Origin: Candidatus Saccharimonadota bacterium | GTDB taxonomy: Bacteria; Pseudomonadota; Gammaproteobacteria; Enterobacterales; Enterobacteriaceae | Length of the DNA: 32,000 bases | Direction of reading: 5' to 3' | Assembly (NCBI RefSeq): GCF_004296475.1 | Contig: NZ_AP018162.1 | Span: 1 to 32,000 of the forward strand | Notes under the pieces: generated by a model | The model's input: the letters and a program-made list of their open reading frames with translations, nothing else | What the model was told of the DNA's origin: nothing | The model's database searches: none | Part shown: in pieces, positions 1,172 to 26,635 of the stretch | Layout: every line of letters starts with the position of its first letter | How positions within the stretch are numbered: the stretch's first letter is position 1 | Made by a program: the position numbers and the translations under genes

Positions 1172-1178
1172 AATTAAA

Positions 1179-5068: not shown

Positions 5069-6157
5069 TTATCTATATAATAATTTTAAATTTGGAATTA
5101 TAAATATATCTAATTTACCATTTAATATAGAATTTATATTATTTGTTTTAATACCAGTTCTTATATCCTTTATTAAAGAATTATCTAAATAATATGATCT
5201 TATTTGATTACTCCAACTTATATCAAATTTTGATTTTTCAATATTTTTATTTTTTATATTTATTTGATTATCATTAAATGATTTTACTTTTTTTTTTAAT
5301 TGATTTAAAGCATGTTCTTTATTTATATGTTGAGATCTATAATTTTGACATTGAACTACTATTCCTGTAGGAATATGTGTTAATCTAACTGCAGATTCTG
5401 TTTTATTAACATGCTGACCACCTGAACCAGATGATTTATAAAAATCAACTTTAACATCTTTTATATCAATATATAAATTTTTATTAATATTTATTTTAGG
5501 ATATACAAATATAGAGCTAAATGAAGTATGTCTTTTATTAGAATTAAGTAAATTTTTTTTTATTAATCTATGTATTCCATTTTCTGTTTTTAACCATCCA
5601 TATGGATAATATCCATATATTTCTATAGATTTTAATTTTATACTATTATTTATGTTCCCTAAAGATTCATTTATTATTTTATATTTTAAATTTTTATTTT
5701 CAAAAAATTTTATATACATTTTAAATAATATATTAGACCATTCTTGTGATTCATCCCCTCCTGATCCTGATTTAATATTCATCAGACATGGTAAATTATC
5801 ATTATTTTTAAATAAAAAATATATTTCAATTTCATTAAATTCTATAATAATATTTTTTATATTTTTTTCTATTATTAATAAATAATTATTTTTATTATCT
5901 TTTTTATATATATCAAATAAATTATTTATATTATTTATATAATTTATATAGTTTTTATAAAATGAAATTTTTTTTTTTAATATTTTTTTTTCTTCATTTA
6001 GTTCAAAAAAACTAATATTATTTTTATTTTTTAATTTATCAATTACTTCTTTATATAAATATTCTAATTTTTTAATATCTATTTTTTTTAATATAATATC
6101 TATATCTTCTATTAATTTATTAAATTTATTATTTAGTTCATTAATTTTATAACTCAT
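5069..6157 (-). CDS. prfB: Peptide chain release factor 2, uninterrupted ORF without the programmed frameshift
   Basis: The 362 aa ORF has RF2-specific stretches 'YGWLKTENGIHRL', 'RHTSFSS.FVYP' and 'SSGSGGQHVNKTESAVRLTHIPTGIVVQCQN.RSQH.NK'. The C-terminal 'QIRSYYLD.S.IKD.RTG' is also present. The GGQ motif maps to nt 5414-5422. The gene sits upstream of lysS. The SPF position reads NLL (see findings). Confidence 0.93.
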   Translation of the reverse strand: MSYKINELNNKFNKLIEDIDIILKKIDIKKLEYLYKEVIDKLKNKNNISFFELNEEKKILKKKISFYKNYINYINNINNLFDIYKKDNKNNYLLIIEKNIKNIIIEFNEIEIYFLFKNNDNLPCLMNIKSGSGGDESQEWSNILFKMYIKFFENKNLKYKIINESLGNINNSIKLKSIEIYGYYPYGWLKTENGIHRLIKKNLLNSNKRHTSFSSIFVYPKININKNLYIDIKDVKVDFYKSSGSGGQHVNKTESAVRLTHIPTGIVVQCQNYRSQHINKEHALNQLKKKVKSFNDNQINIKNKNIEKSKFDISWSNQIRSYYLDNSLIKDIRTGIKTNNINSILNGKLDIFIIPNLKLLYR

Positions 6158-6163
6158 TAATAA

Positions 6164-7765
6164 TTATTTTTTTTTAGCTAATTTAAATGCTTCTGTCATT
6201 ACATTAGAAAAATTAGAATTTTTATTATAAATGCATAAATCTACATTTCTATTTTTTTTATCAAAATTAATTATTTTTACGTTTATAATATCATTTTCTT
6301 TTAATTTATTATTTTCAAGTTTTAAACTTCCATTTATATTATTATTTAATTTTACTAATACTATATTATCTTTTATACTTATTACCTTTCCATTTAATAT
6401 ATTACCTTTTTTATTATTTAAAATAAACTTATCAAAAGGATCTTCTAATTGTTTTAGTCCTAATGAAACTCTTTCTTTTTCTTTATCTAAATTAATTATA
6501 TAAGATATTATTTTATCTCCTTTTTTGTACTTATTATTTATATAATCTATAGATACATCATTCCATGAAATATCTGTTATATGTATTAAACCATCTATTT
6601 TATCATCACAAACTTCTACAAATATTCCAAAATCTGTTATAGATTTTATTATACAATATACTTTATCAGATATTTTATATTTATTAATAAATGTTTCCCA
6701 TGGATTTATACTACATTGTTTCATACCCATAGATATTCTTCTTAATTTAGTATCAATATTTAATATAGTTACATCTACTTTATCTCCTATTTTTACAAAT
6801 TTATAAGGATTTAAATTTTTATTTTTCCAACTCATTTCTGAAGTATGAACTAATCCTTCTATCCCATCCTCTATTTCAACAAAGCATCCATAATCTACTA
6901 AATTAGTAACATTACCTTTAAATTTATATCCAACAGGGTATTTATTTAATAAGTTATCCCATGGATCTTCTGTTAATTGTTTTAATCCTAAAGATATTCT
7001 TAATTTTTCAAAATCAAATTTTAATATTTTAATACTTATCTCTTCTCCAATTTTTAATACATCAGATGGATGTTTAATTCTTTTCCATGATATATCAGTT
7101 ATATGTAATAATCCATCTATTTTACCTAAATCTATAAAAGCTCCATAATCAGTTATATTTTTAACAACTCCTTTTAATATATCATTTATTTTTAATGATT
7201 TTATTACATTTAATCTTTCATTATTATTTTCTAAATCTAATATAGCTTTTCTAGAAAGAACTATATTACTATTACTTTTGTCTATTTTGATTAATTTAAA
7301 TTCTACTTTATTATTTTTATTAAATTCAAATTCTTTAAAGAAATTTATTCCTACTAATGATCCAGGTAAAAACGCATTTATATCTTTATTAAATATTTTT
7401 ACTGTAAAACCTCCTCTAACTTTTTCATTTACATATCCTTTTATTGATAAATTATTTTTATATATATTATCTAATAATAACCATGTTTCGTGTAATTTTG
7501 CTTTAGATCTTGATAGAACAGTTTCTCCCTTTCCATTATCTATACTTTCTAATAGAAAATTAACTTCATCATTTAAATTAACTTCTATATTATCATCTTC
7601 ATCATAAAATTCTTTTATATCTATAAAAGATTCAGATTTTAAATTAGAATCAACCATTATATAATTTTTATTTATAGATAATATTTTACATTTAATTAAA
7701 TCTCCACATTTAAATTTATTATTACTTTTATATTTATTAAATATAGAAATAAAAGATTCTTTCAT
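6164..7765 (-). CDS. rpsA: 30S ribosomal protein S1
   Basis: The 533 aa ORF is built of repeated S1/OB motifs such as 'G.V......G.FV.....I.GL.H.S..SW'. Its length and repeat count are close to the six-domain E. coli protein (557 aa). It lies downstream of aroA, matching the E. coli neighbourhood aroA-(ycaL-cmk)-rpsA. Confidence 0.93.
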   Translation of the reverse strand: MKESFISIFNKYKSNNKFKCGDLIKCKILSINKNYIMVDSNLKSESFIDIKEFYDEDDNIEVNLNDEVNFLLESIDNGKGETVLSRSKAKLHETWLLLDNIYKNNLSIKGYVNEKVRGGFTVKIFNKDINAFLPGSLVGINFFKEFEFNKNNKVEFKLIKIDKSNSNIVLSRKAILDLENNNERLNVIKSLKINDILKGVVKNITDYGAFIDLGKIDGLLHITDISWKRIKHPSDVLKIGEEISIKILKFDFEKLRISLGLKQLTEDPWDNLLNKYPVGYKFKGNVTNLVDYGCFVEIEDGIEGLVHTSEMSWKNKNLNPYKFVKIGDKVDVTILNIDTKLRRISMGMKQCSINPWETFINKYKISDKVYCIIKSITDFGIFVEVCDDKIDGLIHITDISWNDVSIDYINNKYKKGDKIISYIINLDKEKERVSLGLKQLEDPFDKFILNNKKGNILNGKVISIKDNIVLVKLNNNINGSLKLENNKLKENDIINVKIINFDKKNRNVDLCIYNKNSNFSNVMTEAFKLAKKK

Positions 7766-7786
7766 TTTATTATTTAATTTTAATTT

Positions 7787-9079
7787 TTAATGTATAATTG
7801 ATTTTAAACATTCAAAATAATTAGGAAATGTTTTATTTACACAATCAGGATTCATTATATCAATTTTAATGCCAGATAAAGGTATTAAAGAAAAACACAT
7901 TGCTATTCTATGATCATCATATGTATCTATATTTGCATATCTAAATTTATTAGGAGGTTTTATAGATATAAAATCTTTACCTTCTATAATTTCAGCGCCT
8001 ATTTTTTTTAATTCATTGGACATAGCAGATAATCTATCTGTTTCTTTTAATCTCCAATTATAAATATTTCTAAAAATAGATATTTTTTTATCATTAACAA
8101 ATAAAGATAAAATAACTGCTGTCATAGCAGAATCAGGTATATCATTTACATCTGCATCTATATTTTTTAATAGTTTAGAACTATTATAAGATTCTATAAA
8201 ATTATCACCAAATTTTATATCACCTCCCATTTTACTTATTAAATTAGTAAAATTTATATCACCTTGTATACTTTTTGATCCTACACCAAAAACTTTAACA
8301 GGTCCTGATTTTATAGCACCAGCTGCTAAAAAATAAGATGCACTTGTTGCATCTCCTTCTATATAATATTCTTTTGGTGATATATAGTTAGATTTTCCTT
8401 TTATGTAAAATTCTTTATAATCTTTATTTATAATATTTATTCCAAAAGATTTCATTATAGATAAAGTTATATTAATATATGGTTTAGAAACTAAATTATT
8501 ATTTATTTTTATTAAACTATCATTATAAGCTAATGGAGAAACTATTAATAATGATGTTAAAAATTGACTAGATATATTACCATTTATAGTTATTAAACCT
8601 CCTGAATATCCACCATTTATATTAATTGGAGGAAAATTTTTATTTTCTAAAAATTTTATATTCGCCCCCCCCATTCGTAATGATTCAACCAAATCTCCTA
8701 TTGGTCTTTCTTTCATTCTATTATTCCCAGTTATAGTTATATTATTATTTATTCCTAAAGATAATATAGATGTTAAAAATCTAATTGTAGTTCCTGAATT
8801 ACCTATAAATAATTCTACATTTTTTTTATTTATAATAGATTCTTTATTTCCATATATCTCAATTTTATTACTACTTACTTTATTTATTTTTATTCCTAAT
8901 ATTTTTAATGATGAAATCATATAATTAACATCATCGCTATCTAATATATTAGATAATATTGTTTTTTCATTTGTAAGAGCTGATATTAACAATGCTCTAT
9001 TTGATATACTTTTTGATCCTGGTAAGTTTACAGAACCATAAATTTCATTAATAGGATTAATAGTTAAAATATTATTCAT
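7787..9079 (-). CDS. aroA: 3-phosphoshikimate 1-carboxyvinyltransferase (EPSP synthase)
   Basis: The 430 aa ORF begins with the N-terminal signature 'LPGSKSISNRALLISAL' and also contains 'GNSGTT.RFL', 'MKERPIGDLV' and 'LKETDRL.AM..EL.K.GA'. The C-terminal 'DDHRIAMCFSL' is present. The length matches E. coli AroA (427 aa). Confidence 0.95.
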   Translation of the reverse strand: MNNILTINPINEIYGSVNLPGSKSISNRALLISALTNEKTILSNILDSDDVNYMISSLKILGIKINKVSSNKIEIYGNKESIINKKNVELFIGNSGTTIRFLTSILSLGINNNITITGNNRMKERPIGDLVESLRMGGANIKFLENKNFPPININGGYSGGLITINGNISSQFLTSLLIVSPLAYNDSLIKINNNLVSKPYINITLSIMKSFGINIINKDYKEFYIKGKSNYISPKEYYIEGDATSASYFLAAGAIKSGPVKVFGVGSKSIQGDINFTNLISKMGGDIKFGDNFIESYNSSKLLKNIDADVNDIPDSAMTAVILSLFVNDKKISIFRNIYNWRLKETDRLSAMSNELKKIGAEIIEGKDFISIKPPNKFRYANIDTYDDHRIAMCFSLIPLSGIKIDIMNPDCVNKTFPNYFECLKSIIH

Positions 9080-9108
9080 AATATTACATTTTATTTAAAA
9101 TTTTATAA

Positions 9109-10374
9109 TTATATATATATCTTATTAAGATATGGTATTAATACATTTGGAATTCTAATTTTATTATTATTTTCTTGATAATTTTCTATAATAGAAGCTA
9201 AAGTTCTATTTACTGCTAATCCAGATGCATTTAAAATATGTAAAAATTCTTTTTTATTATTTTTTTTATATTTTAATGATATTCTTCTAGATTGAAAATC
9301 TTTTGTATTTGAACAAGAAGAAACTTCTATATATGAATTATTATAAGGAAACCACGCTTCAATATCATATGTTTTACATGAATTAAATGGAGTATCACCT
9401 GAACATAATAATATTCTTCTATATGGAATTTCTAGTAATTTTAGTATATTTTCTGCATCATTAGTTATTTCTTCTAATGCATTATCAGAATTGTTAGGAT
9501 CAACTATTTGTATTAATTCTACTTTGTCAAATTGATTTAATCTTATTAATCCTTTTTTATTTTTACCATAATATCCATATTCTGATCTAAAACATTGACT
9601 ATATGATACTAATTTGATAGGCAAATCTTTAAAATTTATATTTTTATTTCTAAATAAATTAATTAATTGCACTTCTGATGTAGGTATTAAAGCTTTATCT
9701 GATTCTGAGTTATTTTTTATATAAAAAATATCTTTATTAAATTTAGGAAGTTGACCAGATCCATATAATGATTTAATATTAGAAATTAATGGAACATATA
9801 TTTCTTTATATCCATTTTTATTATGAACATCTAACATAAAGTTAATTAAAGCTCTATTCATTAGAGCAATATTATCTTTTAATACTACAGTTTTTAATCC
9901 TGATATATTTAAAGATGATTTAAAATCTAAACCATTATTAATATATCCTAAAGAAATATGATCTTTTATAACAAAATTAAAATTTTTTATATATCCATAT
10001 TTATATATTTCAACATTTTTATTTCCATATATATCTATTGGAACATCATTATCTATTAAATTAGGTATTTTAAGTAAAAATTCATTTAATTTATTATTAA
10101 TTTCTATAAACTTAATTTTTAATTTAGATAATATTTTTCCTATTTCTATAGATTTTTTTATTAAAAATTCTATATTTTTATTTTCATTTTTTAATATTCT
10201 TATTTCTTCTGAAAGAATATTTTTTTTTTTTCTTAAATTTTCTATATTAATTTGTATATTTTTTTTATTTAAAAAAAAATTTTTAAAAAATTTTATATTT
10301 AAATTAAAATTTCTTTTTTTTAAATTTTCTAAAATATAATTACAACTATTTAAAATTAATTTATAATCTATCAT
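9109..10374 (-). CDS. serS: Serine--tRNA ligase
   Basis: The 421 aa ORF has an N-terminal coiled-coil arm followed by a class II core, with 'LIPTSEV.L.N', 'CFRSE.G..G....GLIRLNQF.KVE' and 'VSSCSN..DFQSRR'. It lies downstream of lolA as in E. coli, where rarA intervenes. Confidence 0.93.
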   Translation of the reverse strand: MIDYKLILNSCNYILENLKKRNFNLNIKFFKNFFLNKKNIQINIENLRKKKNILSEEIRILKNENKNIEFLIKKSIEIGKILSKLKIKFIEINNKLNEFLLKIPNLIDNDVPIDIYGNKNVEIYKYGYIKNFNFVIKDHISLGYINNGLDFKSSLNISGLKTVVLKDNIALMNRALINFMLDVHNKNGYKEIYVPLISNIKSLYGSGQLPKFNKDIFYIKNNSESDKALIPTSEVQLINLFRNKNINFKDLPIKLVSYSQCFRSEYGYYGKNKKGLIRLNQFDKVELIQIVDPNNSDNALEEITNDAENILKLLEIPYRRILLCSGDTPFNSCKTYDIEAWFPYNNSYIEVSSCSNTKDFQSRRISLKYKKNNKKEFLHILNASGLAVNRTLASIIENYQENNNKIRIPNVLIPYLNKIYI

Positions 10375-10390
10375 TCAAAATTCTTAAATA

Positions 10391-10993
10391 TTAATCAATT
10401 ATAACATTCTCTGGTAATGATAAATCAAACAATTTATCTGATAATTCATCATAATCATGATTTTTTAAAACAAAATTAATATATTTTTTTTTACTTAAAA
10501 AAATTTTAAATTCATTTATAACGCCTTCTTTATCTATATTTATAATAAAATTATTATATTTTATTTTATTTTTAGGAAATATAAAAAATGTATCCTTATC
10601 TCTAAAAATTCTAAAATTTTTCCAAAAATTAGAACTACTATTTAATAGTATTTCTAAAATTACATTATTTATATCAAATAATTCTCTTTTTATTGCTATA
10701 TTCATAGAAGGATTATAAAATAATATTTCTACTCCATCAGTTACTACTATACTTTCAATTGGTCTAATTACATGAAATTTAAACATATTTGGTCTTTTTA
10801 TATATAAGTAACCACTTCCTATATTTATATCATTATTATTTTTGTTTATAAATTGATTAAATTCAGATTTAAAATTATCTATTTTAAATATTCTATTTCT
10901 TAAAATAGCATCATCTGATGCATAGGCAACATAAATATCATTAAGAAGTACTAAAATTAATAAAGTAACTACAGTAATTTTTATACTTTTCAT
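10391..10993 (-). CDS. lolA: Outer-membrane lipoprotein carrier protein LolA
   Basis: The 200 aa ORF has a signal-peptide-like N-terminus ('KITVVTLLILVLL...AYA'). The stretch 'GSGYLYIKRPNMFKFHVIRPIESIVVTDGVEILFYNP' aligns with E. coli LolA '[37 protein letters not shown]'. It sits between ftsK and serS as in E. coli. Confidence 0.87.
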   Translation of the reverse strand: MKSIKITVVTLLILVLLNDIYVAYASDDAILRNRIFKIDNFKSEFNQFINKNNNDINIGSGYLYIKRPNMFKFHVIRPIESIVVTDGVEILFYNPSMNIAIKRELFDINNVILEILLNSSSNFWKNFRIFRDKDTFFIFPKNKIKYNNFIINIDKEGVINEFKIFLSKKKYINFVLKNHDYDELSDKLFDLSLPENVIID

Positions 10994-11004
10994 TTTAATT
11001 AAAA

Positions 11005-11463
11005 TTATTTAAATGTTAATTTAATACTAATTATTAATAATATTATATATAATTCAGAAATATAAAAAATATTATTAAAATAATATTTTTTATGTAAATC
11101 TAATATCATATATCCTATAATCCCTCCTGATCTAATTTTATTATATGAACTAAATAAAATTTCAGATAATAAACAAGAAGAAATTAATAATAAAATATTA
11201 CCAAAAATTTTAATTAATAATTTATAAAAAAAATCAAATTTATTATTATTATACTTTGGATAAAAAAATAATATTAAAGGTATAATATACATAGGAAAAC
11301 CAAATATTAAAAATAATATATCTGAAATATTTGATCCTATTTTTCCTCCAAAATTTAGTATTTTATTATTATTAAATGTTAATAAACTAGAATCATTATA
11401 ATTATAACTAAATATTATTAAAAATAAATATAAAATAAATAATTTATATATAAAATTTAACAC
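11005..11463 (-). CDS. ftsK: FtsK N-terminal polytopic membrane (division) domain only; linker and DNA-translocase motor absent
   Basis: The 152 aa ORF has 4-5 hydrophobic segments. 'NFGGKIGSNISDILFLIFGFPMYIIPLIL' aligns with E. coli FtsK '[29 protein letters not shown]', and 'RSGGIIGYMIL' aligns with 'ASGGVIGSLL'. It sits immediately upstream of lolA, the canonical ftsK slot. The start codon is GTG at 11461-11463, and the next in-frame Met is about 57 codons in. The TAA stop lies 11 nt before the lolA start. Confidence 0.75.
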   Translation of the reverse strand: MLNFIYKLFILYLFLIIFSYNYNDSSLLTFNNNKILNFGGKIGSNISDILFLIFGFPMYIIPLILFFYPKYNNNKFDFFYKLLIKIFGNILLLISSCLLSEILFSSYNKIRSGGIIGYMILDLHKKYYFNNIFYISELYIILLIISIKLTFK

Positions 11464-11536
11464 TATAATATAAAAAAAAATTAATAAAATATATAAAATA
11501 TTATATATTATTTATTAAATAAATAACAGTAAAAGA
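11464..11536. promoter_or_regulatory. Divergent intergenic region, presumed to hold promoters for the minus-strand ftsK...lysS block and the plus-strand infA...pgi array
   Basis: At 73 nt this is the longest non-coding gap in the window and the only divergent junction. A TATAAT hexamer lies at 11464-11469 on the + strand. In DNA this AT-rich, -10-like hexamers are not individually significant, so the call is positional. Confidence 0.3.
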
Positions 11537-11746
11537 ATGAAGAATAATATAGAAATGAAAGGAATAGTTATAAATACATTACCTAATATGAAATTTAAAG
11601 TTAAATTAGAAAATGGAAATATAATAATAGCTTATATATCAGGAAAAATAAGAAAAAATTTTATAAAAATATTAATAGGAGATAAAGTTACTGTAGAAAT
11701 AACTCCATATGATTTAAGCAAAGGAAGAATAATATTTAGAAATTAA
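11537..11746 (+). CDS. infA: Translation initiation factor IF-1
   Basis: The 69 aa ORF '[64 protein letters not shown]' is near-collinear with E. coli IF1 (72 aa). Confidence 0.96.
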
Positions 11747-12679
11747 ATGAATAAATTACATAATCCAGTAATGGTTAATGAAGTAATAGATAATTTAAAT
11801 ATAAAAAATAATAGTATATATTTAGACGCAACATTTGGAACAGGAGGTCATACAAATGAAATATTAAAAAATATAAGCAATGATAGTAAATTGATATCAA
11901 TAGATAAAGATTATATGTCATTAAAATTATCAAAAAAAATTAATGATAATAGATTTGAATTTATAAATTGTAGCTTTTCAGAATTATATAATATTCTTTA
12001 CAAAAAAAAAATTTTAGGAAAAATAAATTGTATACTAATAGATCTTGGATTATCTATGTATCAAATAAAAAATTCAGGAAAAGGATTTTCTTTTATGAAA
12101 GATGAAAAAATAGATATGAGAATAAATGATTCTTATGGAATAAGTGCTTATTCATGGTTAAAAAAGGCATCAATTAATAATATAACATATGTATTAAAAA
12201 ATTTTGGTGAAGAGAAATATGCAAAAAAAATAGCAACAGAAATAATAAAAAGAAGAAATAAAAATATTTTTTTTAATAGCACAAAAGATTTAGCTAATAT
12301 AATTTCTTATATTAAAAGAAATAAAAGAACTAGAATTCATCCTGCTACAAAATCATTTCAAGCTATAAGGATATATATAAATAATGAATTTTATGAATTA
12401 AATAATATATTAAACAATATTAATAATTTTTTATCAAAAAATGGGATTTTATTAATAATAAGTTTTAATTCATTAGAAGGTAGAATAATAAAAAATAAAT
12501 TTAAAAATATAGAAAATGATTTTTTAAAAAAAATTCCATTTAATAATAATGAATATAATATATTTAATAAAAAATTTAATAATATTAAAATGATAAAAAA
12601 AATAAAACCTTCAAAAGAAGAAATTAATAATAATATTTCGTCTAGAAGCGCAATATTAAGAATTTTTAAAAAAATTTAA
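11747..12679 (+). CDS. rsmH: 16S rRNA (cytosine1402-N4)-methyltransferase RsmH (MraW)
   Basis: The 310 aa ORF has the motifs 'H.PVMVNEV...L......YLDATFG.GGHT..IL', 'DLG.S..Q' and 'GFSF'. It occupies the first retained position of the dcw cluster. Its ATG directly abuts the infA TAA with a 0 nt spacer. Confidence 0.9.
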   Translation: MNKLHNPVMVNEVIDNLNIKNNSIYLDATFGTGGHTNEILKNISNDSKLISIDKDYMSLKLSKKINDNRFEFINCSFSELYNILYKKKILGKINCILIDLGLSMYQIKNSGKGFSFMKDEKIDMRINDSYGISAYSWLKKASINNITYVLKNFGEEKYAKKIATEIIKRRNKNIFFNSTKDLANIISYIKRNKRTRIHPATKSFQAIRIYINNEFYELNNILNNINNFLSKNGILLIISFNSLEGRIIKNKFKNIENDFLKKIPFNNNEYNIFNKKFNNIKMIKKIKPSKEEINNNISSRSAILRIFKKI

Positions 12680-12688
12680 TTTCATAAT

Positions 12689-12982
12689 ATGAAAAATAAT
12701 TTATTTTTAATAATTCTTAAAGATTTATGTAACAAAACAATATTATTAATAATATATTTTATATTTATATCTGTTTTAATTTTAAATACTAATTTAAAAG
12801 TAAAAAAATTAAATAATATAAAAAAAGAATTGATAGATAAAAATTTTAATTTAATAATAAATTTTAATAAATTAAAAACAAAAAAGTCTATACTTTTAAA
12901 TAGAAATAGAATAGAAAAGATATCTATAAATATACTAAATATGAACTATATTAACAATAATAATATTAAAATATTAAAATAA
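12689..12982 (+). CDS. ftsL: Cell division protein FtsL
   Basis: The 97 aa ORF has one N-terminal transmembrane segment and then a coiled-coil-like region. The C-terminal 'RNRIEKISINILNMNYINNNNIKILK' aligns with E. coli FtsL '[28 protein letters not shown]'. It sits in the canonical slot between rsmH and ftsI. Confidence 0.78.
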   Translation: MKNNLFLIILKDLCNKTILLIIYFIFISVLILNTNLKVKKLNNIKKELIDKNFNLIINFNKLKTKKSILLNRNRIEKISINILNMNYINNNNIKILK

Positions 12983-14613
12983 TGAATGAAGATAATAAAA
13001 TTATAATTTTATTGATAATAATAGTTAATTTAATTATTATTATTTCTAGAATAACATTCTTACAAATATTTAATAATAAATTTTTAAATAATAAAGGAAA
13101 TTCTATTTCATATAGAAAATATGAAAAAATATTACCAAGAGGAATAATATATGATAGAAATAATAAAGTATTAGCGGTAAGCGTATTAACTAAATCTATA
13201 TATATTAATTCATATTTATTAAATAAAAATATTAAAACAGATGCATTAAAAAAAAAAATATTTAAACTTTCAAATTTATTATCATTGAATTTTAATAAAT
13301 TAATTAGAATAATAAATAAAAATTCAAATAAAAAATTTTTATGTTTACTAAAAAATGTAAATAATGATAAGTTAATACAATCTATAATAAAATTAAATAT
13401 AAAGGAATTATATATAAAAAATGAATATATAAGATATTATCCATATAAAGAATTTACATCAAACATAGTTGGATTAACTGATATAGATAATATAGGAATA
13501 GAAGGGATTGAAAAAAAATTTAATAATATATTAAATAACTATAATAAAAATTTTTTTCATAAAGACAAATTTGGAAATATTATAGAATATAAAAATAAAT
13601 ATAATAATTTCATAAATAAAGATATAGTATTAAGTATAGATGAAAAAATACAATCATTTGCATTTAATAAAATGCATGAATATATATTATCAAATAAATC
13701 TAAATATGGAATTATAATATTAACTAATATTAAAACTGGTGAAATATTGGCAATGGTTAACTATCCATCTTTTGATCCCAATAATAGAAAATTTAATACT
13801 AATTTTGTAAGAAATAGATCAATAACTGATTTATTTGAACCTGGGTCTATAATAAAACCATTAGTATTATTAACTGCATTAAAATATGGAATTAATGAAA
13901 ATATAAAAATTGATACAACTCCATACAATGTAAATGGTTATGAAATAAAAGATTCTTTTAAAAGTAATGAATTATCAATGTCTAATATACTTTCAAAATC
14001 TAGTAATACAGGTATATCTAGAATAGCATTATCTATACCTTTTAAATTAATAGTTGATTGTTATAAAAATTTTGGAGTAGGTCAATTAACAAATATAGAG
14101 CTAATAGGAGAAAATAAAGGATTTTTACCCAAAAAAAGAAATTTTAGTAAAATAGAAAAAATAATATTATCATATGGATATGGATTAATGTTAACACCAA
14201 TACAAATATCTAAAATTTATTCTATTATAGGTAATTTTGGAAATTATAAACCTATTACTATATTAAAAAGAAATAATAATAATATAAAAGAAAAACCAAT
14301 TTTTGAAAAAAAAATAGTTAAAAAAATAATAAATATGATGGAAAAAACAACGTATAAAGGAGGAAGCGCAACTAGGGCTTTAATTGAAGGATATAAAATA
14401 GCTGTAAAAACAGGAACTGTTAAAAAAATAGTTAATAAAAAATATGTTAATAAATATATTTCATATATTGCAGGTATTGCTCCAATTGATGATCCAAAAT
14501 TTTCTTTATTAGTAATGTTAGATGATCCAGGATTTAAAGAATATTATGGAGGATTAGTTGCAGCTCCTATATTTAAAGAAATAATGAAAGAAGCTTTAAG
14601 ATTAAATATTTAA
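12982..14613 (+). CDS. ftsI: Peptidoglycan D,D-transpeptidase FtsI (PBP3)
   Basis: The 543 aa ORF has an N-terminal transmembrane anchor and the transpeptidase motifs SxxK ('GSIIKP'), SxN ('SSN') and KTG ('KTGT'). Its start overlaps the ftsL stop in a TAATG arrangement. Confidence 0.92.
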   Translation: MNEDNKIIILLIIIVNLIIIISRITFLQIFNNKFLNNKGNSISYRKYEKILPRGIIYDRNNKVLAVSVLTKSIYINSYLLNKNIKTDALKKKIFKLSNLLSLNFNKLIRIINKNSNKKFLCLLKNVNNDKLIQSIIKLNIKELYIKNEYIRYYPYKEFTSNIVGLTDIDNIGIEGIEKKFNNILNNYNKNFFHKDKFGNIIEYKNKYNNFINKDIVLSIDEKIQSFAFNKMHEYILSNKSKYGIIILTNIKTGEILAMVNYPSFDPNNRKFNTNFVRNRSITDLFEPGSIIKPLVLLTALKYGINENIKIDTTPYNVNGYEIKDSFKSNELSMSNILSKSSNTGISRIALSIPFKLIVDCYKNFGVGQLTNIELIGENKGFLPKKRNFSKIEKIILSYGYGLMLTPIQISKIYSIIGNFGNYKPITILKRNNNNIKEKPIFEKKIVKKIINMMEKTTYKGGSATRALIEGYKIAVKTGTVKKIVNKKYVNKYISYIAGIAPIDDPKFSLLVMLDDPGFKEYYGGLVAAPIFKEIMKEALRLNI

Positions 14614-14614
14614 T

Positions 14615-16093
14615 ATGAAAAATTTTAGAATAAGAAAATTACTAAGTAAATGGATAGATAATAGAATTCCTGACATTTTAATATCAAATATAGTGTTAGA
14701 TAGTAGATTAGTTAATTTTAATTGTGCATTTTTTGCTGTTATAGGGTATAAAAATGATGGTAGAAAATATATAAATAAAGCTATATCAAAAGGAGCATCT
14801 ATAATAATATCAGAAACTGATGATATAAATTTACATAATAAAATAAATTTTATTAATAATATATGTATAGTTTTATTTTATTTATTAAGAAATAATTTAT
14901 CTGAAATAGCTGGATTGTTTTATAATAATCCATGTAAAAAAACTAATATAATATGTATAACTGGCACAAATGGAAAAACCACTATAACATTTTTAACATC
15001 ACAGTTATTAAAACTTTTAAATAAAAATTGTTCATTAATAGGAACATTAGGGAATGGAAAATATGATAATTTAATAAAAACTGAATGTACAACAGATTCT
15101 CCATTTGATATATATAAAGAAATATATAATAAAGTAAAAGAAAAAAATGAATTTATATTAATAGAAGCTTCATCTCATAGTTTATATCAAAACAGAATAA
15201 AAAATTTAAATATAAAATTAGCTGTATTTACAAATATATCACATGAACATTTGGATTTTCATAAAAATATGAAAAATTATAAAGAATCCAAACTTAAATT
15301 ATTTAAAGATCATAATGTAAATTTTTCTATAATAAATTATGATAATGAATTTGGAAAATATTTATATAATTTACTTAAAGATAAATGTTATATATTAACA
15401 TATAATAAAAATGTATTTAAAGAAAAAGTATTAAAAATTATTAATATAAAAATTTTTAAAGAAAATAGTATAATTATATTTGAAAAAGATTCTAATATTT
15501 ATAAACTAGATAGTAAATTTTGTGAAATCTTTAATATAAATAATTTACTAATTTCATTACTTATACTAAATTTTTTTAAATTCCCAATGGAAAATACATT
15601 AAAATTAGTAAATTTTTTAAAACTTCCATGTGGAAGATTAAACTCTACAAAATATAATGATGTAGAAATTATAGTAGATTATGCACATACTCCAGATTCT
15701 TTTAATAAAGTTTTAAAATCAATTAAAAATAGATGTATAAATAATTTATGGTGCATATTTGGATGCGGGGGAGAAAAAGATAAAAAAAAAAGAAAAATAA
15801 TGGCTAAAATAGTAAATAAATACTCAAATTTTTCTATTATAACTACTGATAATCCAAGAAATGAAGAAATTAATAATATAGTTAATGATATAAAAAAAGG
15901 ATTTAATAAATCTAATTACAAAGTTATATTAGATAGAGAAGATGCTATAAGATATTCAATAAAAAATTCTTATAAAAATGATATTATTTTAATATTAGGA
16001 AAAGGTCATGAAGATTATCAAATAATAAAAAATAAAAAAATATTTTATTCTGATATTCATTTAGTTAAAAAAATAGTAAAATGTTTGAATTAA
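14615..16093 (+). CDS. murE: UDP-N-acetylmuramoyl-L-alanyl-D-glutamate--2,6-diaminopimelate ligase
   Basis: The 492 aa ORF has the Mur ligase P-loop 'ITGTNGKTT', plus 'VDYAHTPD' and 'TDNPRNEE' (a DNPR-type motif typical of meso-DAP-adding MurE). It occupies the dcw position after ftsI. Confidence 0.92.
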   Translation: MKNFRIRKLLSKWIDNRIPDILISNIVLDSRLVNFNCAFFAVIGYKNDGRKYINKAISKGASIIISETDDINLHNKINFINNICIVLFYLLRNNLSEIAGLFYNNPCKKTNIICITGTNGKTTITFLTSQLLKLLNKNCSLIGTLGNGKYDNLIKTECTTDSPFDIYKEIYNKVKEKNEFILIEASSHSLYQNRIKNLNIKLAVFTNISHEHLDFHKNMKNYKESKLKLFKDHNVNFSIINYDNEFGKYLYNLLKDKCYILTYNKNVFKEKVLKIINIKIFKENSIIIFEKDSNIYKLDSKFCEIFNINNLLISLLILNFFKFPMENTLKLVNFLKLPCGRLNSTKYNDVEIIVDYAHTPDSFNKVLKSIKNRCINNLWCIFGCGGEKDKKKRKIMAKIVNKYSNFSIITTDNPRNEEINNIVNDIKKGFNKSNYKVILDREDAIRYSIKNSYKNDIILILGKGHEDYQIIKNKKIFYSDIHLVKKIVKCLN

Positions 16094-17457
16094 ATTTATA
16101 TAAAATATCTGAAATAGTGAATGGTGAATTATTAAATTGTAATAAAAATATATTAATATTAACATATTCAATTAATTCTAGAGAAATAAAAAATAATTGT
16201 ATATTTATAGCTTTTAAAGGTAAAAATTTTGATGGTCATGAATTTATACAAGATTCAATAAAAAATGGCGCTAAATCAATAATAGTATCTAAATTTGTAA
16301 AAAATATAAATATTCCTCAAATAATAGTTAAAGATACATATTTAGCATTAAAAAATATTGCATCTTATATAAGGAAAATTTCAAAATCATTTTTTATATC
16401 TATAACTGGATCTTGTGGCAAAACTACTGTTAAAGAAATTTTATATAATATAATAAATAATTATTCAAATAATATAACTTATACATATAAAAATAATAAT
16501 AATAATATAGGTGTTATATTAACAATATTAAATATTAAAAAAACTGATAAATATGTAATTATAGAAGTAGGAGCTAATACTCCATATGAAATTTATGAAT
16601 CAATAAAAATAATAAATCCAGATTTAATATTAATAAATAATTTATATATATCACACTTAAAATTTTTTAAAACATTTGAAATTCTATCAAACTCAAAAGG
16701 AGAAATTTTTTATGGATTAAAAAATAATGGAAGAATATTACTTAATTATGATAATAATAATTGGGATAATTGGAAATATCTAAATATTAATATAGGTAAA
16801 TCACCATTATTTTTTTCATTAAATTATAATAAGAATGTAGATTTTTATGCAAGTAATATAAATTTAAATAAATTTAAATCAAATTTTGTTTTAAATACTC
16901 CTATTGGAAATAAAATAATTGAATTTAATATATTAGGAATCCATAATATATATAATATATTAGCAGCAAGTTCATTATCTATAATTTCTGGAATAAATTT
17001 AGAATGTATATATAATGGAATAAAAAATTTTAATGGTGTTATAGGAAGATTATATCCATATTTTTTAAGAAATAATGAGATAATATTAATAGATGATAGT
17101 TATAACGCAAATATGGGATCTATATATACTGCTATAAAAGTATTAGAAAAAATGCCTGGATATAAAATTTTTGTTATAGGTGATTTAAATGAACTAGGAT
17201 GTGATGAAATTAAATATCATATAGATATAAAATTAAATATTAAAAATAATAATTATAATATAAATAAAATTTTTAGTTTTGGTAAATTGTCTAAATTTAT
17301 AACTAATGGTAAAAATCATTTCTATGATAAAAAAGATCTATTTAATAGTATAAAAAATATATTTAATGAACATAAATATATATCAATTTTAATAAAAGGA
17401 TCAAGAACTAATCTCTTAGATGAATTAGTAAATAATATATTATTTTTATTTAAATAA
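16081..17457 (+). CDS. murF: UDP-N-acetylmuramoyl-tripeptide--D-alanyl-D-alanine ligase
   Basis: The 458 aa ORF starts 'MFELNLYKISEIVNGELL', matching E. coli 'MISVTLSQLTDILNGELQ'. It has 'ITGSCGKTT', 'DDSYNAN' and a C-terminal 'IKGSR'. It overlaps the murE 3' end by 13 nt. Confidence 0.92.
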   Translation: MFELNLYKISEIVNGELLNCNKNILILTYSINSREIKNNCIFIAFKGKNFDGHEFIQDSIKNGAKSIIVSKFVKNINIPQIIVKDTYLALKNIASYIRKISKSFFISITGSCGKTTVKEILYNIINNYSNNITYTYKNNNNNIGVILTILNIKKTDKYVIIEVGANTPYEIYESIKIINPDLILINNLYISHLKFFKTFEILSNSKGEIFYGLKNNGRILLNYDNNNWDNWKYLNINIGKSPLFFSLNYNKNVDFYASNINLNKFKSNFVLNTPIGNKIIEFNILGIHNIYNILAASSLSIISGINLECIYNGIKNFNGVIGRLYPYFLRNNEIILIDDSYNANMGSIYTAIKVLEKMPGYKIFVIGDLNELGCDEIKYHIDIKLNIKNNNYNINKIFSFGKLSKFITNGKNHFYDKKDLFNSIKNIFNEHKYISILIKGSRTNLLDELVNNILFLFK

Positions 17458-17463
17458 AATAAA

Positions 17464-18474: not shown

Positions 18475-18475
18475 A

Positions 18476-19822: not shown

Positions 19823-19827
19823 TAAAT

Positions 19828-20991
19828 ATGTTTTATATAAAAAATAATAATAATTTATATGATAAAAAACTATTTAATATATTTTTATTTTTAATATCTT
19901 TTGGATTTATAATGATAATATCATCATCTATGCCTTATGGATATAAATTATCTAAAGATATTTTATTTTTTGTAAAAAAAACTATATTAATAATATTATT
20001 AATATTTATATTATCTCCTATAATACTAAATTTACCTATTAAAATATGGAATTATTATTCGTTTCATATTTTATTATTAAATTTAGTATTATTATTAATA
20101 TCTTTGATTTTAGGTAAAAAAATAAACGGCTCTAGAAGATGGATAAAATTAGGAATATTAACAATACAACCTTCAGAATTAATAAAATTTACGTTAATAA
20201 ATTATTTTTCCAGTTGTTTATCTAATTATATTAAAGGTGAAGATAATAAATTATGTAAAATAGAATACTTTTTTTTATTTTTTTTTATTATATTATTATT
20301 ATTATTATTTCAACCTGATATAGGTACATTTTTAATATTATTATTAACTATATTAAGTGTACTTATAATATTGAATATAAATATAAAACGTATATTTTAT
20401 ATATTACTTGTATTTTCTTTTTTTATAAAAAAAATTTTAAATAAAAAATATATATTAATTAGATTAATAGCATTTTTAAATCCATGGAAAGATCCATTTA
20501 ATAGTGGTTATCAATTAATTCAATCTTTTATTTCATATGGAAGAGGTGGGATATTCGGCAGGGGTTTAGGTAATTCTATACAAAAAATGAATTATTTACC
20601 TGAATCTTATAATGATTTTATATTTTCAATAATATCTGAAGAATTCGGATATTTATTTTCATTAACTATAATACTATTAATATTTTTTATATCTATTAAA
20701 GCTATACGTATAGGTAATGAATCAATTAGACTTAATAATATATTTGAAAGTATAATATCTTATTCTATAGGGATATGGATAAATATACAAACTAATATGA
20801 ATATAGGAACAGCAATAGGTATAATACCAACTAAAGGTATAACTTTACCACTTATAAGTTATGGAGGTTCTAGTTTATTAATTACTTCTATATCTATATT
20901 TATTTTAATAAGAATAGATTTTGAAAATAAATTAAAAAGTAAATTTCAAGTTATAAATAAAAATGAAAAAAAAAATAATTATAACTACTAA
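19828..20991 (+). CDS. ftsW: Peptidoglycan glycosyltransferase / lipid II-associated SEDS protein FtsW
   Basis: The 387 aa polytopic ORF has the SEDS signatures 'RW...G....QPSE..K', 'QPD.GT' and 'P...TDF(I)FS...EE.G'. 'GI.P.KG..LP.ISYGGSS' is also present. It lies between murD and murG. Confidence 0.9.
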   Translation: MFYIKNNNNLYDKKLFNIFLFLISFGFIMIISSSMPYGYKLSKDILFFVKKTILIILLIFILSPIILNLPIKIWNYYSFHILLLNLVLLLISLILGKKINGSRRWIKLGILTIQPSELIKFTLINYFSSCLSNYIKGEDNKLCKIEYFFLFFFIILLLLLFQPDIGTFLILLLTILSVLIILNINIKRIFYILLVFSFFIKKILNKKYILIRLIAFLNPWKDPFNSGYQLIQSFISYGRGGIFGRGLGNSIQKMNYLPESYNDFIFSIISEEFGYLFSLTIILLIFFISIKAIRIGNESIRLNNIFESIISYSIGIWINIQTNMNIGTAIGIIPTKGITLPLISYGGSSLLITSISIFILIRIDFENKLKSKFQVINKNEKKNNYNY

Positions 20992-23430: not shown

Positions 23431-23438
23431 TAATATTT

Positions 23439-24167
23439 ATGGATAATTTTTTTTATATAAAAAATAAAAATAATAATATTATTTTTAGAAAAATAAGTAT
23501 ATTTTTATTATTAATATTTAATTTTTTTATTATATTTTTTTTTTTTAAAAAAATTAATATTTTATTAAATAAAAAATACATATTTATACTAGAAATTAAT
23601 AATTTAAATTTTATAGAAAATTCATATATAAATAATATTTTAGATTTAAATATTAAATATAATTTTATAAATTTAGATATATTAAATATAAAAAAAAAAA
23701 TAGAAAAAATTTATTGTATAAAAAAAATAATAATAAAAAAAAAATATCCTAACACATTATATGTAAATATATTAGAATATAACCCATTAATTAGATTAAA
23801 TTATAGTAATTTATTTATCGATAAAAATTTAAATATATTCAGTATATTAAAAAATATAGATAATATACCAATATTAATATCTAATTATATAGATATAAAA
23901 AAAATAAATAATTTTATTAAAATAGAAAATAAATTACTTAGTATTAAATTAAATATTAATTATATAAAAATTAGTAAAAATAATTCATGGTCTATTAAAA
24001 CTAAAAATAATATAATTTTAAAATTGGGAAAAAAAAACATTATTAATAGATTAAATAGATTTGTTACTTTTTATAATTTAATTATTAATGAATCTAAATT
24101 ATTAAATAAAAGTATAGAATATATAGATTTAAGATATAAAAATGGATTTTCAATAAAATGGATTTAA
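23439..24167 (+). CDS. ftsQ: Cell division protein FtsQ
   Basis: The 242 aa ORF has one transmembrane segment followed by a POTRA-like region. 'KIEKIYCIKKIIIKKKYPNTLYVNILEYNPLIRLN' aligns with E. coli '[36 protein letters not shown]'. 'RLNRFVTFYNL...IEYIDLRYKNGFSIKW' aligns with 'RLARFVELYPV...ISYVDLRYDSGAAVGW'. Confidence 0.87.
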   Translation: MDNFFYIKNKNNNIIFRKISIFLLLIFNFFIIFFFFKKINILLNKKYIFILEINNLNFIENSYINNILDLNIKYNFINLDILNIKKKIEKIYCIKKIIIKKKYPNTLYVNILEYNPLIRLNYSNLFIDKNLNIFSILKNIDNIPILISNYIDIKKINNFIKIENKLLSIKLNINYIKISKNNSWSIKTKNNIILKLGKKNIINRLNRFVTFYNLIINESKLLNKSIEYIDLRYKNGFSIKWI

Positions 24168-24205
24168 ATTTTATTAAAATTTAATTTAAGTAAAATTTAA
24201 AAAAA

Positions 24206-25471
24206 ATGATTAAAAAAGATTCAAAATTAAAAAATTTAGTTGTAAGTCTAGAAATAAGTTCATCAAAAATAATATCTTTAATAGGAGAAATTTTAGTTGA
24301 TAATACTATAAATATAATAGGAATTGGGAGATGTAAATCAAATGGAATAGATAAAGGTAATATAGTAGATTTAGAATCAGTAACAAATTCAATAAAAAAT
24401 TCAATAAATCAAGCTGAATTAATGTCTGATTATAAAATATCTTCAGTATATTTATCTATATCAGGAAAAGATATAAATTTTCAAAATGAAACTGGATTAA
24501 TTACATTAAATGAAAATAGTGATATAACACAAAATGATATTAATAATGTAATTAAAAATGCCAGTTTAGTTAAATTAAAAGATCATCATAAAATAATACA
24601 TATAATTCCTCAAGAATATATAATAGATAAAAAATATGGAATAATAAACCCAATAGGGTTATCTGGAATAAAATTAAAAGTAATAGCTAATTTAATAACA
24701 TGTAGTAATGATACTATAAAAAATTTAGTTAGAATAGTTGAAAGATGTAATATAAAAGTGGATAAGTTAATATATTCTGGTTTATCATCTAGTTATTCAG
24801 TATTAACGAATGATGAAAAAAAACTTGGAGTATGTTTAATAGATATGGGTGGAGAGACAATAGATATAATAATATATATAGATGGTATATTACGTTTAAT
24901 AAAAGTTATACCATATGCAGGAAATTTAGTCACTAATGATATATCATATGCATTTAATATATCATCTTCATACGCTGATTTATTAAAATTTAAATATGGT
25001 ACTTTATCAGAATTATCATCTAATAATGATGATACAGTTAATATACCTAATTTTAATGATTTAAATATAAAGAAATCAATAAAAAAAAAAGAATTATATA
25101 AAGTTATAAAATCAAGATATATAGAATTGTTTAATTTAATAAATAATGAAATTATTAATTTACAAAATAAATTAATAAGAGGAAAATATAAATATTTTTT
25201 AAGTGCAGGTATAGTTATTACAGGTGGTTCATCAAAAATAGATGGTATATTAAGTTGTGCATATAAAATTTTTAAAAAAGAAGTTAGGATAGGATATCCT
25301 CAAAATATAGTTGGATTAACTGATTATGTTCAATTACCAGATTATTCTACTTCTGTAGGTTTATTGCATTATGGAAAATTATGTAATAATTTAAATAAAC
25401 CTGATTATAGTAATTCTATAACTAAAATTTTAATAAAAAAATGTGAGAAATTTTTAAAAAAAATAATTTAA
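24206..25471 (+). CDS. ftsA: Cell division protein FtsA
   Basis: The 421 aa ORF has the actin/FtsA fold signatures 'V.LEISSSKI', 'G.CLIDMGGET.DI', 'IPYAGN.VTNDI..AF' and 'GIVITGGSS...G'. It sits in the canonical slot between ftsQ and ftsZ. Confidence 0.94.
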   Translation: MIKKDSKLKNLVVSLEISSSKIISLIGEILVDNTINIIGIGRCKSNGIDKGNIVDLESVTNSIKNSINQAELMSDYKISSVYLSISGKDINFQNETGLITLNENSDITQNDINNVIKNASLVKLKDHHKIIHIIPQEYIIDKKYGIINPIGLSGIKLKVIANLITCSNDTIKNLVRIVERCNIKVDKLIYSGLSSSYSVLTNDEKKLGVCLIDMGGETIDIIIYIDGILRLIKVIPYAGNLVTNDISYAFNISSSYADLLKFKYGTLSELSSNNDDTVNIPNFNDLNIKKSIKKKELYKVIKSRYIELFNLINNEIINLQNKLIRGKYKYFLSAGIVITGGSSKIDGILSCAYKIFKKEVRIGYPQNIVGLTDYVQLPDYSTSVGLLHYGKLCNNLNKPDYSNSITKILIKKCEKFLKKII

Positions 25472-25486
25472 TAGTGTAATAATTTT

Positions 25487-25493
25487 AAGGTGA
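25487..25493 (+). promoter_or_regulatory. Shine-Dalgarno-like element for ftsZ
   Basis: An AAGGTGA heptamer lies 4 nt upstream of the ftsZ ATG (25498). It is the only clear purine-rich GGAGG/GGTG-type element I can see upstream of any start codon in this window. Confidence 0.5.
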
Positions 25494-25497
25494 TTTT

Positions 25498-26628
25498 ATG
25501 AGCAGTAATGATTTAGAATCATTAAATGATGCTGTAATAAAAGTTATAGGTATTGGTGGTGGAGGAAATAATGCTATAGAATATATGTCTAAAGAATATA
25601 TTAGTGGAGTTAATTTTTTTGCTGTTAATACTGATGCTCAGGCATTAAGAAAAATATCAATAGATAAAAAAATACAAATAGGTAAAAATATAACTAAAGG
25701 ATTAGGGGCTGGATCTAATCCAGAAATTGGTAAAAATGCAGCTGAAGAAGATAAAGAAATTTTAAAATCAATATTAGAAGGATCTGATATGGTATTTATA
25801 ACAGCAGGGATGGGAGGGGGTACTGGTACAGGAGCTTCTCCTATAATTGCAGAAATAGCTAAAGATTTAGGTATATTAACAGTAGCAATAGTTACTAAAC
25901 CTTTTAGTTTTGAAGGTAAAAAAAGATCATTATATGCTAATCAAGGGGTTTTATCATTATCTAAATTTGTTGATTCATTGATAGTTATACCTAATGATAA
26001 ATTATTAAAAACTTTTAATAGAGGCGTTTCATTATTAGATGCATTTAGTTATGCTAATAATATATTAAGAAATGCAATACAAGGTATATCTGAATTAGTT
26101 ACAAAACCAGGATTAATAAATGTAGATTTTGCTGATATAAGAACTGTTATGTCAGAAATGGGATATGCTATGATAGGAACAGGATCTTCTAAAGGAGAAA
26201 ATAGAGCTGAAGAAGCTACAAAAATAGCAATATCTAGTCCATTATTAGAAGATGTAGATTTATCTGGAGCAAAAGGAGTTTTAATAAATATATCAGCAAA
26301 TTTTGATTTAAAATTAGATGAATTTGAATTAATAGGAAATTCAATAAGAAAATTTGCTTCTGAAGAAGCAACTGTTGTTATAGGAACATCATTAGACTCA
26401 AGTATGAGTGATGAGATAAGGGTAACTATAGTCGCCACGGGGATTCAATTAGATAAAATATCAGATATTAATATAATATATAAAAATAAAAATATTTTTT
26501 CAAATGAAAAACCTTTTATACAGCAAAATAAAAATGAAAATAATTTTAAAAATTTAAAAAATAATAATTTAACAGATAATTTAGAATATTTAAATATTCC
26601 TTCATTTTTAAGAAACCCTATTGATTAA
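25498..26628 (+). CDS. ftsZ: Cell division GTPase FtsZ
   Basis: The 376 aa ORF has 'IKVIGIGGGGNNA', the tubulin signature 'GMGGGTGTGASPIIAEIAK' and 'NVDFADIRTVM'. The conserved C-terminal peptide 'LEYLNIPSFLRN' (E. coli 'DYLDIPAFLRK') follows an N/K-rich linker. The region is visibly less AT-rich than its neighbours. Confidence 0.98.
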   Translation: MSSNDLESLNDAVIKVIGIGGGGNNAIEYMSKEYISGVNFFAVNTDAQALRKISIDKKIQIGKNITKGLGAGSNPEIGKNAAEEDKEILKSILEGSDMVFITAGMGGGTGTGASPIIAEIAKDLGILTVAIVTKPFSFEGKKRSLYANQGVLSLSKFVDSLIVIPNDKLLKTFNRGVSLLDAFSYANNILRNAIQGISELVTKPGLINVDFADIRTVMSEMGYAMIGTGSSKGENRAEEATKIAISSPLLEDVDLSGAKGVLINISANFDLKLDEFELIGNSIRKFASEEATVVIGTSLDSSMSDEIRVTIVATGIQLDKISDINIIYKNKNIFSNEKPFIQQNKNENNFKNLKNNNLTDNLEYLNIPSFLRNPID

Positions 26629-26635
26629 AATTAAA

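Follow-up and report, generated by a model that had tools for sequence, protein, structure and literature searches.

We analysed a 32-kb window (14% of the chromosome) from the 230,546-bp genome of Nardonella, the endosymbiont of the weevil Sipalinus gigas (AP018162, listed in PMC9670985), and focused on what it retains of the cell division gene ftsK. The window, which is the whole stretch of DNA considered here, has a G+C content of about 16%. At the place where ftsK stands in Escherichia coli, an open reading frame (ORF) of 152 codons, hereafter ftsK-N, is read immediately upstream of lolA and serS. In window coordinates, the locus comprises:

11005..11463, minus strand: ftsK-N, 152 codons, GTG start, TAA stop; the four-transmembrane (4-TM) membrane module of FtsK alone.
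10994..11004: spacer from the stop of ftsK-N to the start of lolA, 11 nt, 0% G+C; in E. coli this place is taken by the linker and motor, about 1150 codons.
10391..10993, minus strand: lolA (Pfam LolA, E=9.2e-24; 30% identity to E. coli LolA).
9109..10374, minus strand: serS, separated from lolA by a 16-nt gap, with rarA missing between them.
11464..11536: divergent intergenic region between ftsK-N and infA, 73 nt, 4% G+C, the presumed promoter region.

The product of ftsK-N is entered in GenBank, with an identical sequence, as 'DNA segregation ATPase [endosymbiont of Sipalinus gigas]', and its UniRef name is 'DNA translocase FtsK 4TM domain'. It matches the FtsK_4TM family (Pfam PF13491) with 73.3 bits (E=2.5e-20, for a gathering cut-off of 23.1 bits) over profile positions 14-159 of 171, and its match to the NCBIfam full-length FtsK model (PRK10263) is confined to positions 29-150 of 1355. 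In a MAFFT alignment that includes E. coli FtsK and a further 15 N-domains, residues 1-151 correspond to E. coli FtsK 25-179, a span that opens with the first residue of TM1 and closes with the last of TM4, and identity to the E. coli protein is 30% over 119 aa. The conserved peptide NFGGKIGSNISDILFLIFGFPMYIIPLIL (residues 37-65) aligns with E. coli 62-90. The slot is orthologous as well, the order ftsK-N/lolA/serS corresponding to lrp-ftsK-lolA-rarA-serS in E. coli, with rarA lost. The original prediction, drawn from the nucleotide sequence, had placed a GTG-started ORF of 152 codons in the canonical ftsK slot, 11 nt before lolA, had singled out this peptide as a conserved N-domain stretch and had proposed the FtsK_4TM model as a check; its coordinates are exact, and the alignment, the gene order and the Pfam match all bear it out. 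Homology and synteny thus confirm that ftsK-N is a true N-terminal 4-TM module of FtsK and that it occupies the ancestral place of the gene.

Nothing of the motor was found beside it. E. coli ftsK has 1329 codons, and a tblastn search with residues 181-1329 gave no match in the window, as had been predicted for both the linker and the translocase. A Pfam scan of the ORF returned no domain besides PF13491 at E<=1, the RecA-like FtsK_SpoIIIE ATPase included among the absentees, and there is neither a gamma domain (the winged helix that binds XerD and the FtsK-orienting polar sequences, KOPS) nor a Pro/Gln-rich linker, as the ORF stops one residue past TM4. Pattern searches for KOPS and dif in this origin-proximal window found 0 sites, with about 0 expected. 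One could still envisage a gene fission, in which the alpha/beta/gamma motor is encoded by a gene of its own at another place on the 230-kb chromosome and dimer resolution is kept: the inspected DNA is 14% of the genome, and the GenBank label speaks of a DNA segregation ATPase. That label sits on a motor-less protein and indicates annotation by name transfer only. The function of the FtsK motor depends on spatial control through its septal anchor, and a soluble motor off this anchor would lose the control it needs. The window itself holds no motor similarity, and recF, rarA and recJ are absent from it. Nardonella genomes, with 196-231 genes, are described as having only minimal replication, transcription and translation sets together with tyrosine and peptidoglycan synthesis (PMC12176269), and dif/Xer is reported to be absent from the small genomes of comparable insect endosymbionts, Wigglesworthia included (Carnoy and Roten 2009, PMC2731167). 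By analogy with these genomes, dimer resolution may well be dispensable in Nardonella, as the original prediction proposed, and we regard fission as highly improbable.

The retained module can be divided as follows, all features being on the minus strand:

11410..11460: TM1, residues 2-18 (AlphaFold2 helix 2-18; hydropathy segment 1-20).
11269..11355: the most conserved stretch, N37-L65, with the N-F-G-G-x-x-G motif and TM2, including G55, Y59 and P62.
11155..11241: TM3, residues 75-103 (AlphaFold2 helix), with a conserved S-C at 96-97, of which C97 is near-invariant.
11083..11124: helix 114-127, which begins at the conserved S-G-G-I-I-G motif (G113, G114, G117).
11011..11070: TM4, residues 132-151 (AlphaFold2 helix), aligned with E. 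coli 162-179; the protein ends one residue further on.

Four transmembrane helices had been anticipated as a point to verify, and two approaches predict them. Hydropathy peaks at about 1-20, 45-70, 78-105 and 129-151 agree with an AlphaFold2 model computed from a 28-sequence alignment, which is compact (mean predicted local distance difference test, pLDDT, 93.8; predicted template modelling score, pTM, 0.86) and has helices at 2-18, 40-54/56-66, 75-103, 114-127 and 132-151. For the FtsK N-domain, neither a sequence search of Protein Data Bank (PDB) chains nor Foldseek against the PDB found a solved structure. Across 28 FtsK N-domains eight columns are invariant, and the Nardonella protein retains all of them (D24, N37, G40, G43, G55, G113, G114 and G117); near-invariant P62 is present, and each of the eight Gly residues of the protein falls on a Gly column common with E. 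coli. The likeness to E. coli FtsK-N thus extends from the 4-TM homology and the slot upstream of lolA to the N-x-G-G-x-x-G, F-G, Y-x-x-P, S-C and S-G-G-x-x-G motifs; the E. coli protein differs in having a 24-residue cytoplasmic N-tail, sequence after TM4, and the acidic pair D135/D136.

A short ORF in so AT-rich a genome could also be a non-functional relic, the last piece of a dead ftsK that no stop or deletion has yet hit, with no role in division; chance antisense ORFs reach 123-129 aa elsewhere in the window, and ftsK-N starts with GTG, lacks a Shine-Dalgarno sequence and has a low G+C content at first codon positions (GC1; likewise GC2 and GC3). The intergenic DNA of the whole window (271 nt) is 4.8% G+C and GC3 of the genes is 3-8%. 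As mutational equilibrium lies near pure A+T, any G or C that is kept is informative on constraint. For ftsK-N, GC1/GC2/GC3 is 0.131/0.183/0.033, against 0.048 in intergenic DNA: position 3 is at mutational equilibrium, and the first two positions are kept higher, at 3-5 times the level of neutral DNA (about 4-5%). GC1 and GC2 are raised as in mraY or ftsW, whereas ftsL shows 0.09 at all three positions. About 1 random codon in 10 is a stop at this composition, and when the ORF was shuffled by mononucleotides 200,000 times, every shuffle contained an in-frame stop, so that 152 open codons would be unexpected in a relic. Nor would one expect a relic to retain every family-invariant residue, including those encoded by eight GC-rich Gly codons, or to yield a very confident AlphaFold2 model. 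Moreover, tiny genomes drop dead DNA fast, and ftsK-N is here flanked by 11 nt on one side and 73 nt on the other. In its identity to E. coli the protein resembles others from the Nardonella genome (ftsK-N 30%, LolA 30%, MurG 32%, FtsQ 24%, FtsL no BLAST match). From these compositional and comparative data, ftsK-N appears to be under selection.

With regard to expression, the GTG start is indeed unusual, as had been remarked: it is the sole one among 26 genes checked (ATG 24, TTG 1). No Shine-Dalgarno sequence is recognisable before ftsK-N, and a promoter scan, run with a base composition of 14% G+C, gave 23 sites for 23.2 expected, no better than shuffles.

The divisome genes with which FtsK would work were said to be kept alongside it, and all six named (ftsL, ftsI, ftsW, ftsQ, ftsA and ftsZ) are in the window:

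12689..14613, plus strand: ftsL and ftsI, divisome partners kept in the Sipalinus strain.
19828..20991, plus strand: ftsW.
23439..26628, plus strand: ftsQ, ftsA and ftsZ (identity to E. coli: FtsZ 63%, FtsA 49%).

FtsB, FtsN and ZipA are not encoded in the 32-kb window. Among the genes present, ftsL (12689-12982) has GC1, GC2 and GC3 all at about 0.09, no BLAST match to E. coli FtsL and a Pfam match of just 32 bits, and ftsQ (23439-24167) is 8.4% G+C. These two are the least constrained divisome genes of the window and may be on their way out.

We then compared the Nardonella of Pachyrhynchus infernalis (AP036057.1, L005). In this strain infA and serS are 139 bp apart and both ftsK-N and lolA are gone; a profile hidden Markov model (HMM) search of the six-frame translation of the 21-kb locus found no FtsK-N remnant. 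The dcw region reads rsmH-murE-murF-mraY-murD-murG-murC-secA, with ftsL, ftsI, ftsW, ftsQ, ftsA and ftsZ gone. Between L005 1-11269 and window positions 11537-29056 the kept genes are in the same order, and peptidoglycan precursor synthesis is thus retained without the FtsZ divisome. A sister-strain comparison had been proposed to see whether the truncated ORF is conserved. In the one strain compared it is not, but it is missing together with the divisome genes. In these two strains the presence of ftsK-N tracks that of the divisome, a pattern of gene content that supports a putative divisome-linked role.

The co-loss also includes lolA, and one may ask whether the module has a non-classical role, for instance coupling peptidoglycan or outer-membrane remodelling to the inner membrane, together with a co-transcribed lolA, or serving as an FtsZ-independent membrane scaffold. 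The close spacing of the three same-strand genes ftsK-N, lolA and serS (11 and 16 nt between them) is in keeping with this, as is the contact of the periplasmic loops of E. coli FtsK-N with envelope remodellers such as RlpA (PMC6113214). However, the ftsK-lolA adjacency is ancestral in Enterobacterales and says nothing specific on function, the symbiont Puchtella (see below) has ftsK-N remnants but no lolA, and the periplasmic acidic residues of RlpA-related function are not conserved in the Nardonella protein. Such a role seems improbable to us.

Pachyrhynchus provided the only sister strain. Among 191 phmmer matches the best non-self one has E=2.2e-10, and among the best 150 of these 191 no other has a Nardonella-like amino-acid composition; single-sequence and profile word-index searches found no second Nardonella FtsK-N either. 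In the best 120 matches of a SerS search, Pachyrhynchus is the sole Nardonella sister, with no symbiont of Rhynchophorus, Sphenophorus or Metamasius (Dryophthorinae). A SerS scan of genome contigs gave only Salinicoccus and a Gastranaerophilales metagenome-assembled genome (MAG), in a collection that is also without the source genome. Outside the genome paper (Anbutsu et al. 2017, PNAS), a literature search found no mention of ftsK in Nardonella.

Reduction of ftsK to its 4-TM module recurs in other symbionts. In Wigglesworthia glossinidia brevipalpis (BAC24637, 164 aa) PF13491 is the sole domain and the order is trxB, ftsK-N, 77 nt, lolA, serS. This protein occupies the same slot as that of Nardonella, stops like it at the last residue of TM4 and shares 34% identity with it, but the genome is of 698 kb, a D-D pair is kept in the second periplasmic loop (FDDNY) and there are 12 extra N-terminal residues. 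A symbiont in Logan (ERR13948496) has the order infA, trxB, ftsK-N (182 aa), lolA, serS. Profftia tarda (190 aa; L013) and an Arsenophonus MAG (222 aa; L014) each have a 4-TM-only ORF followed by a stretch without a called gene (6574-8474 and 6670-9101, respectively). These 1.9-2.4 kb are presumably what erosion has left of the rest of ftsK, a halfway stage toward the 11-nt gap of Nardonella; a tblastn search for the FtsK motor found no similarity in them, so that the staged-erosion series is read from the spacing. Annotated 4-TM-only proteins are also encoded on megabase-scale contigs of Hamiltonella (179-201 aa), Hartigia (243 aa) and further Profftia, the size ranges being 190-209 aa in Profftia and 192-245 aa in Arsenophonus MAGs; those of Hamiltonella and Hartigia, which belong to larger genomes and were taken from protein annotation, might be split genes instead of true losses. 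The loci inspected lie within a trxB...lolA/serS neighbourhood. Unlike the Nardonella protein, most of those from Logan, Puchtella, Profftia, Arsenophonus, Hamiltonella and Hartigia carry 10-60 residues past TM4, and the 152 aa of Nardonella make the smallest intact FtsK N-module among those found in these searches.

A published case is that of Serratia symbiotica SCc and STs, which keep only a very small N-terminal part of ftsK (Manzano-Marín and Latorre 2016, Sci Rep 6:32590, 'Dwindling genes', PMC5013485). Its authors concluded, from E. coli genetics, that this part suffices for division, and the idea that the Nardonella gene is a natural ftsK-N truncation, put forward in the original prediction, accords with theirs. 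Serratia symbiotica, which we compared by its published description, differs from Nardonella in being an aphid co-symbiont with genomes of 0.65-1.76 Mb.

Puchtella, the endosymbiont of Pedicinus badii (253 kb; LKAS01000001.1, L010), shows a further state. Its ftsK-N, at 5380-5962, is split into ORFs of 127 aa and 76 aa, which overlap in different frames and score 82.7 and 38.2 bits against the FtsK-N profile, the 76-aa ORF holding the SGGIVG motif; the neighbourhood is trxB, ftsK-N remnants and serS, with lolA gone. The split may reflect pseudogenisation by a frameshift, an error in sequencing or a site of slippage. Two other candidates, L006 and L009, were considered as Nardonella relatives and rejected, being other symbionts with no ftsK or lolA beside serS. 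In L006 (Logan SRR23525760, 219,573 bp) positions 7964-11296 hold infA-trxB, 734 bp and serS, with ftsK and lolA lost; this genome keeps the glycolytic genes pfk, tpi and pyk, as well as zwf and znuABC.

From the homology, the extent from TM1 to TM4, the synteny, the coding constraint, the compact predicted fold, the recurrence and the co-loss documented above, we consider it probable that ftsK-N is a selectively maintained remnant of ftsK, a four-helix inner-membrane module with no tail, linker or alpha/beta/gamma translocase. As in other 'shrunken genes', the kept part is constrained, the lost part is dispensable in E. coli genetics, and the reduction has occurred independently several times. 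Residues 1-200 of FtsK suffice for division in E. coli (Draper et al. 1998, as cited in PMC5013485). In the corresponding laboratory truncation (about residues 1-200) the motor is dispensable for division, whereas the shorter Nardonella protein arose by natural evolution and its role in division is a putative one.

Several observations weigh against this reading. The sister Nardonella of Pachyrhynchus lives without ftsK-N, and the copy in Puchtella is frameshifted; together they indicate that the module is not universally indispensable. Residues D135 and D136 of the second periplasmic loop of E. coli FtsK are reported to be functionally important, in the region of RlpA contact (Berezuk et al. 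2018, PMC6113214), and they align to S105/S106 in ftsK-N; the HEPIH segment (residues 57-61) is NNKIL. The Nardonella protein has neither the linker nor the short post-TM4 segment of the laboratory 1-200 truncation. To its GTG start and missing Shine-Dalgarno sequence is added the lowest GC1 among the well-supported genes of the window. The deletion in Pachyrhynchus, the frameshift in Puchtella, the unconserved aspartates and these features of the start and of GC1 are also what a relic would lead one to expect. But the loss in Pachyrhynchus accompanies that of the whole divisome, rather than of ftsK-N alone, and several unrelated symbiont lineages retain exactly the 4-TM module. Together with the constraint described above, this leaves a non-functional relic unlikely in our view, and a maintained membrane module the better account.

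If ftsK-N is such a maintained module, the stub would, by extension from E. coli genetics, be an inner-membrane protein of the division site with its N-terminus facing the cytoplasm. There it would do the job of FtsK-N, standing in the divisome between the FtsZ/FtsA ring, which is early, and the late septal peptidoglycan machinery of FtsQ/FtsL/FtsW/FtsI. The DNA-pumping part, which activates XerCD at dif, may have been lost because chromosome dimers seldom arise in a symbiont with little recombination. The path was likely a stop or frameshift after TM4, after which deletions wore away the dead 3' part and brought lolA up against the stub. As the protein lacks the tail, the post-TM4 segment and D135/D136, any activity must rest on the transmembrane core and the conserved Gly-rich loops. 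It is conceivable, though we hold it somewhat doubtful, that a functional bare TM1-TM4 core, with its two short periplasmic loops, carries the entire essential activity of FtsK-N.

The remainder of the window is organised as follows:

start of the window, plus strand: dnaN (end 1171) and gyrB (start 1179).
1172..1178: dnaN-gyrB junction, 7 nt, with recF deleted.
minus strand, in order along the window: lysS, prfB, rpsA, aroA, serS, lolA and ftsK-N.
plus strand: infA, rsmH, ftsL, ftsI, murE, murF, mraY, murD, ftsW, murG, murC, ftsQ, ftsA, ftsZ, secA and a 471-aa ORF.
minus strand: efp and groEL.

That recF is missing, as the original prediction noted, is evident from the junction of dnaN and gyrB. 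In the Sipalinus strain recF, recJ and rarA have been cleanly deleted (1172-1178, 6158-6163 and 10375-10390, respectively); recJ is kept in the Pachyrhynchus strain, between rpsA and prfB (L005 14291-16033). The loss of the three genes from the Sipalinus window fits a recombination-poor genome. The dcw cluster is without mraZ, ddlB and lpxC/secM, murC and ftsQ are 8 nt apart (23431-23438), and the end of ftsZ shares 8 nt (26621-26628) with the secA ORF, whose start codon is TTG. The 471-aa ORF (29049-30464, plus strand; 8.3% G+C) has a few bases in common with the end of secA and with that of efp. Its sole Pfam signal is a weak match to the C-terminal part of PGI (E=1.7e-4, under the gathering score), and the choice lies between an extremely eroded pgi and a decaying ORF.

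The ORF was already annotated, and 4-TM-only ftsK is already known from other insect symbionts; being published for some of these and visible in the Wigglesworthia genome record, it is not a new kind of gene, and Nardonella is a further example rather than a new phenomenon. Natural truncation is the accepted reading for this gene class, and no new mechanism is opened or view overturned. What Nardonella adds is an extreme data point, a 152-aa stub in a 0.23-Mb genome, with an 11-nt gap replacing about 1150 codons. The repeated stripping of ftsK to its membrane module is a natural-experiment corroboration that FtsK-N alone is needed for division, and if the bare core is functional, it would offer a natural minimal construct for finding the essential activity of FtsK-N. 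The most useful by-product is the contrast between the Sipalinus strain, which has the divisome and ftsK-N, and the Pachyrhynchus strain, which has neither and keeps the mur pathway; it could inform studies of the minimal divisome and of division in symbionts that have none.

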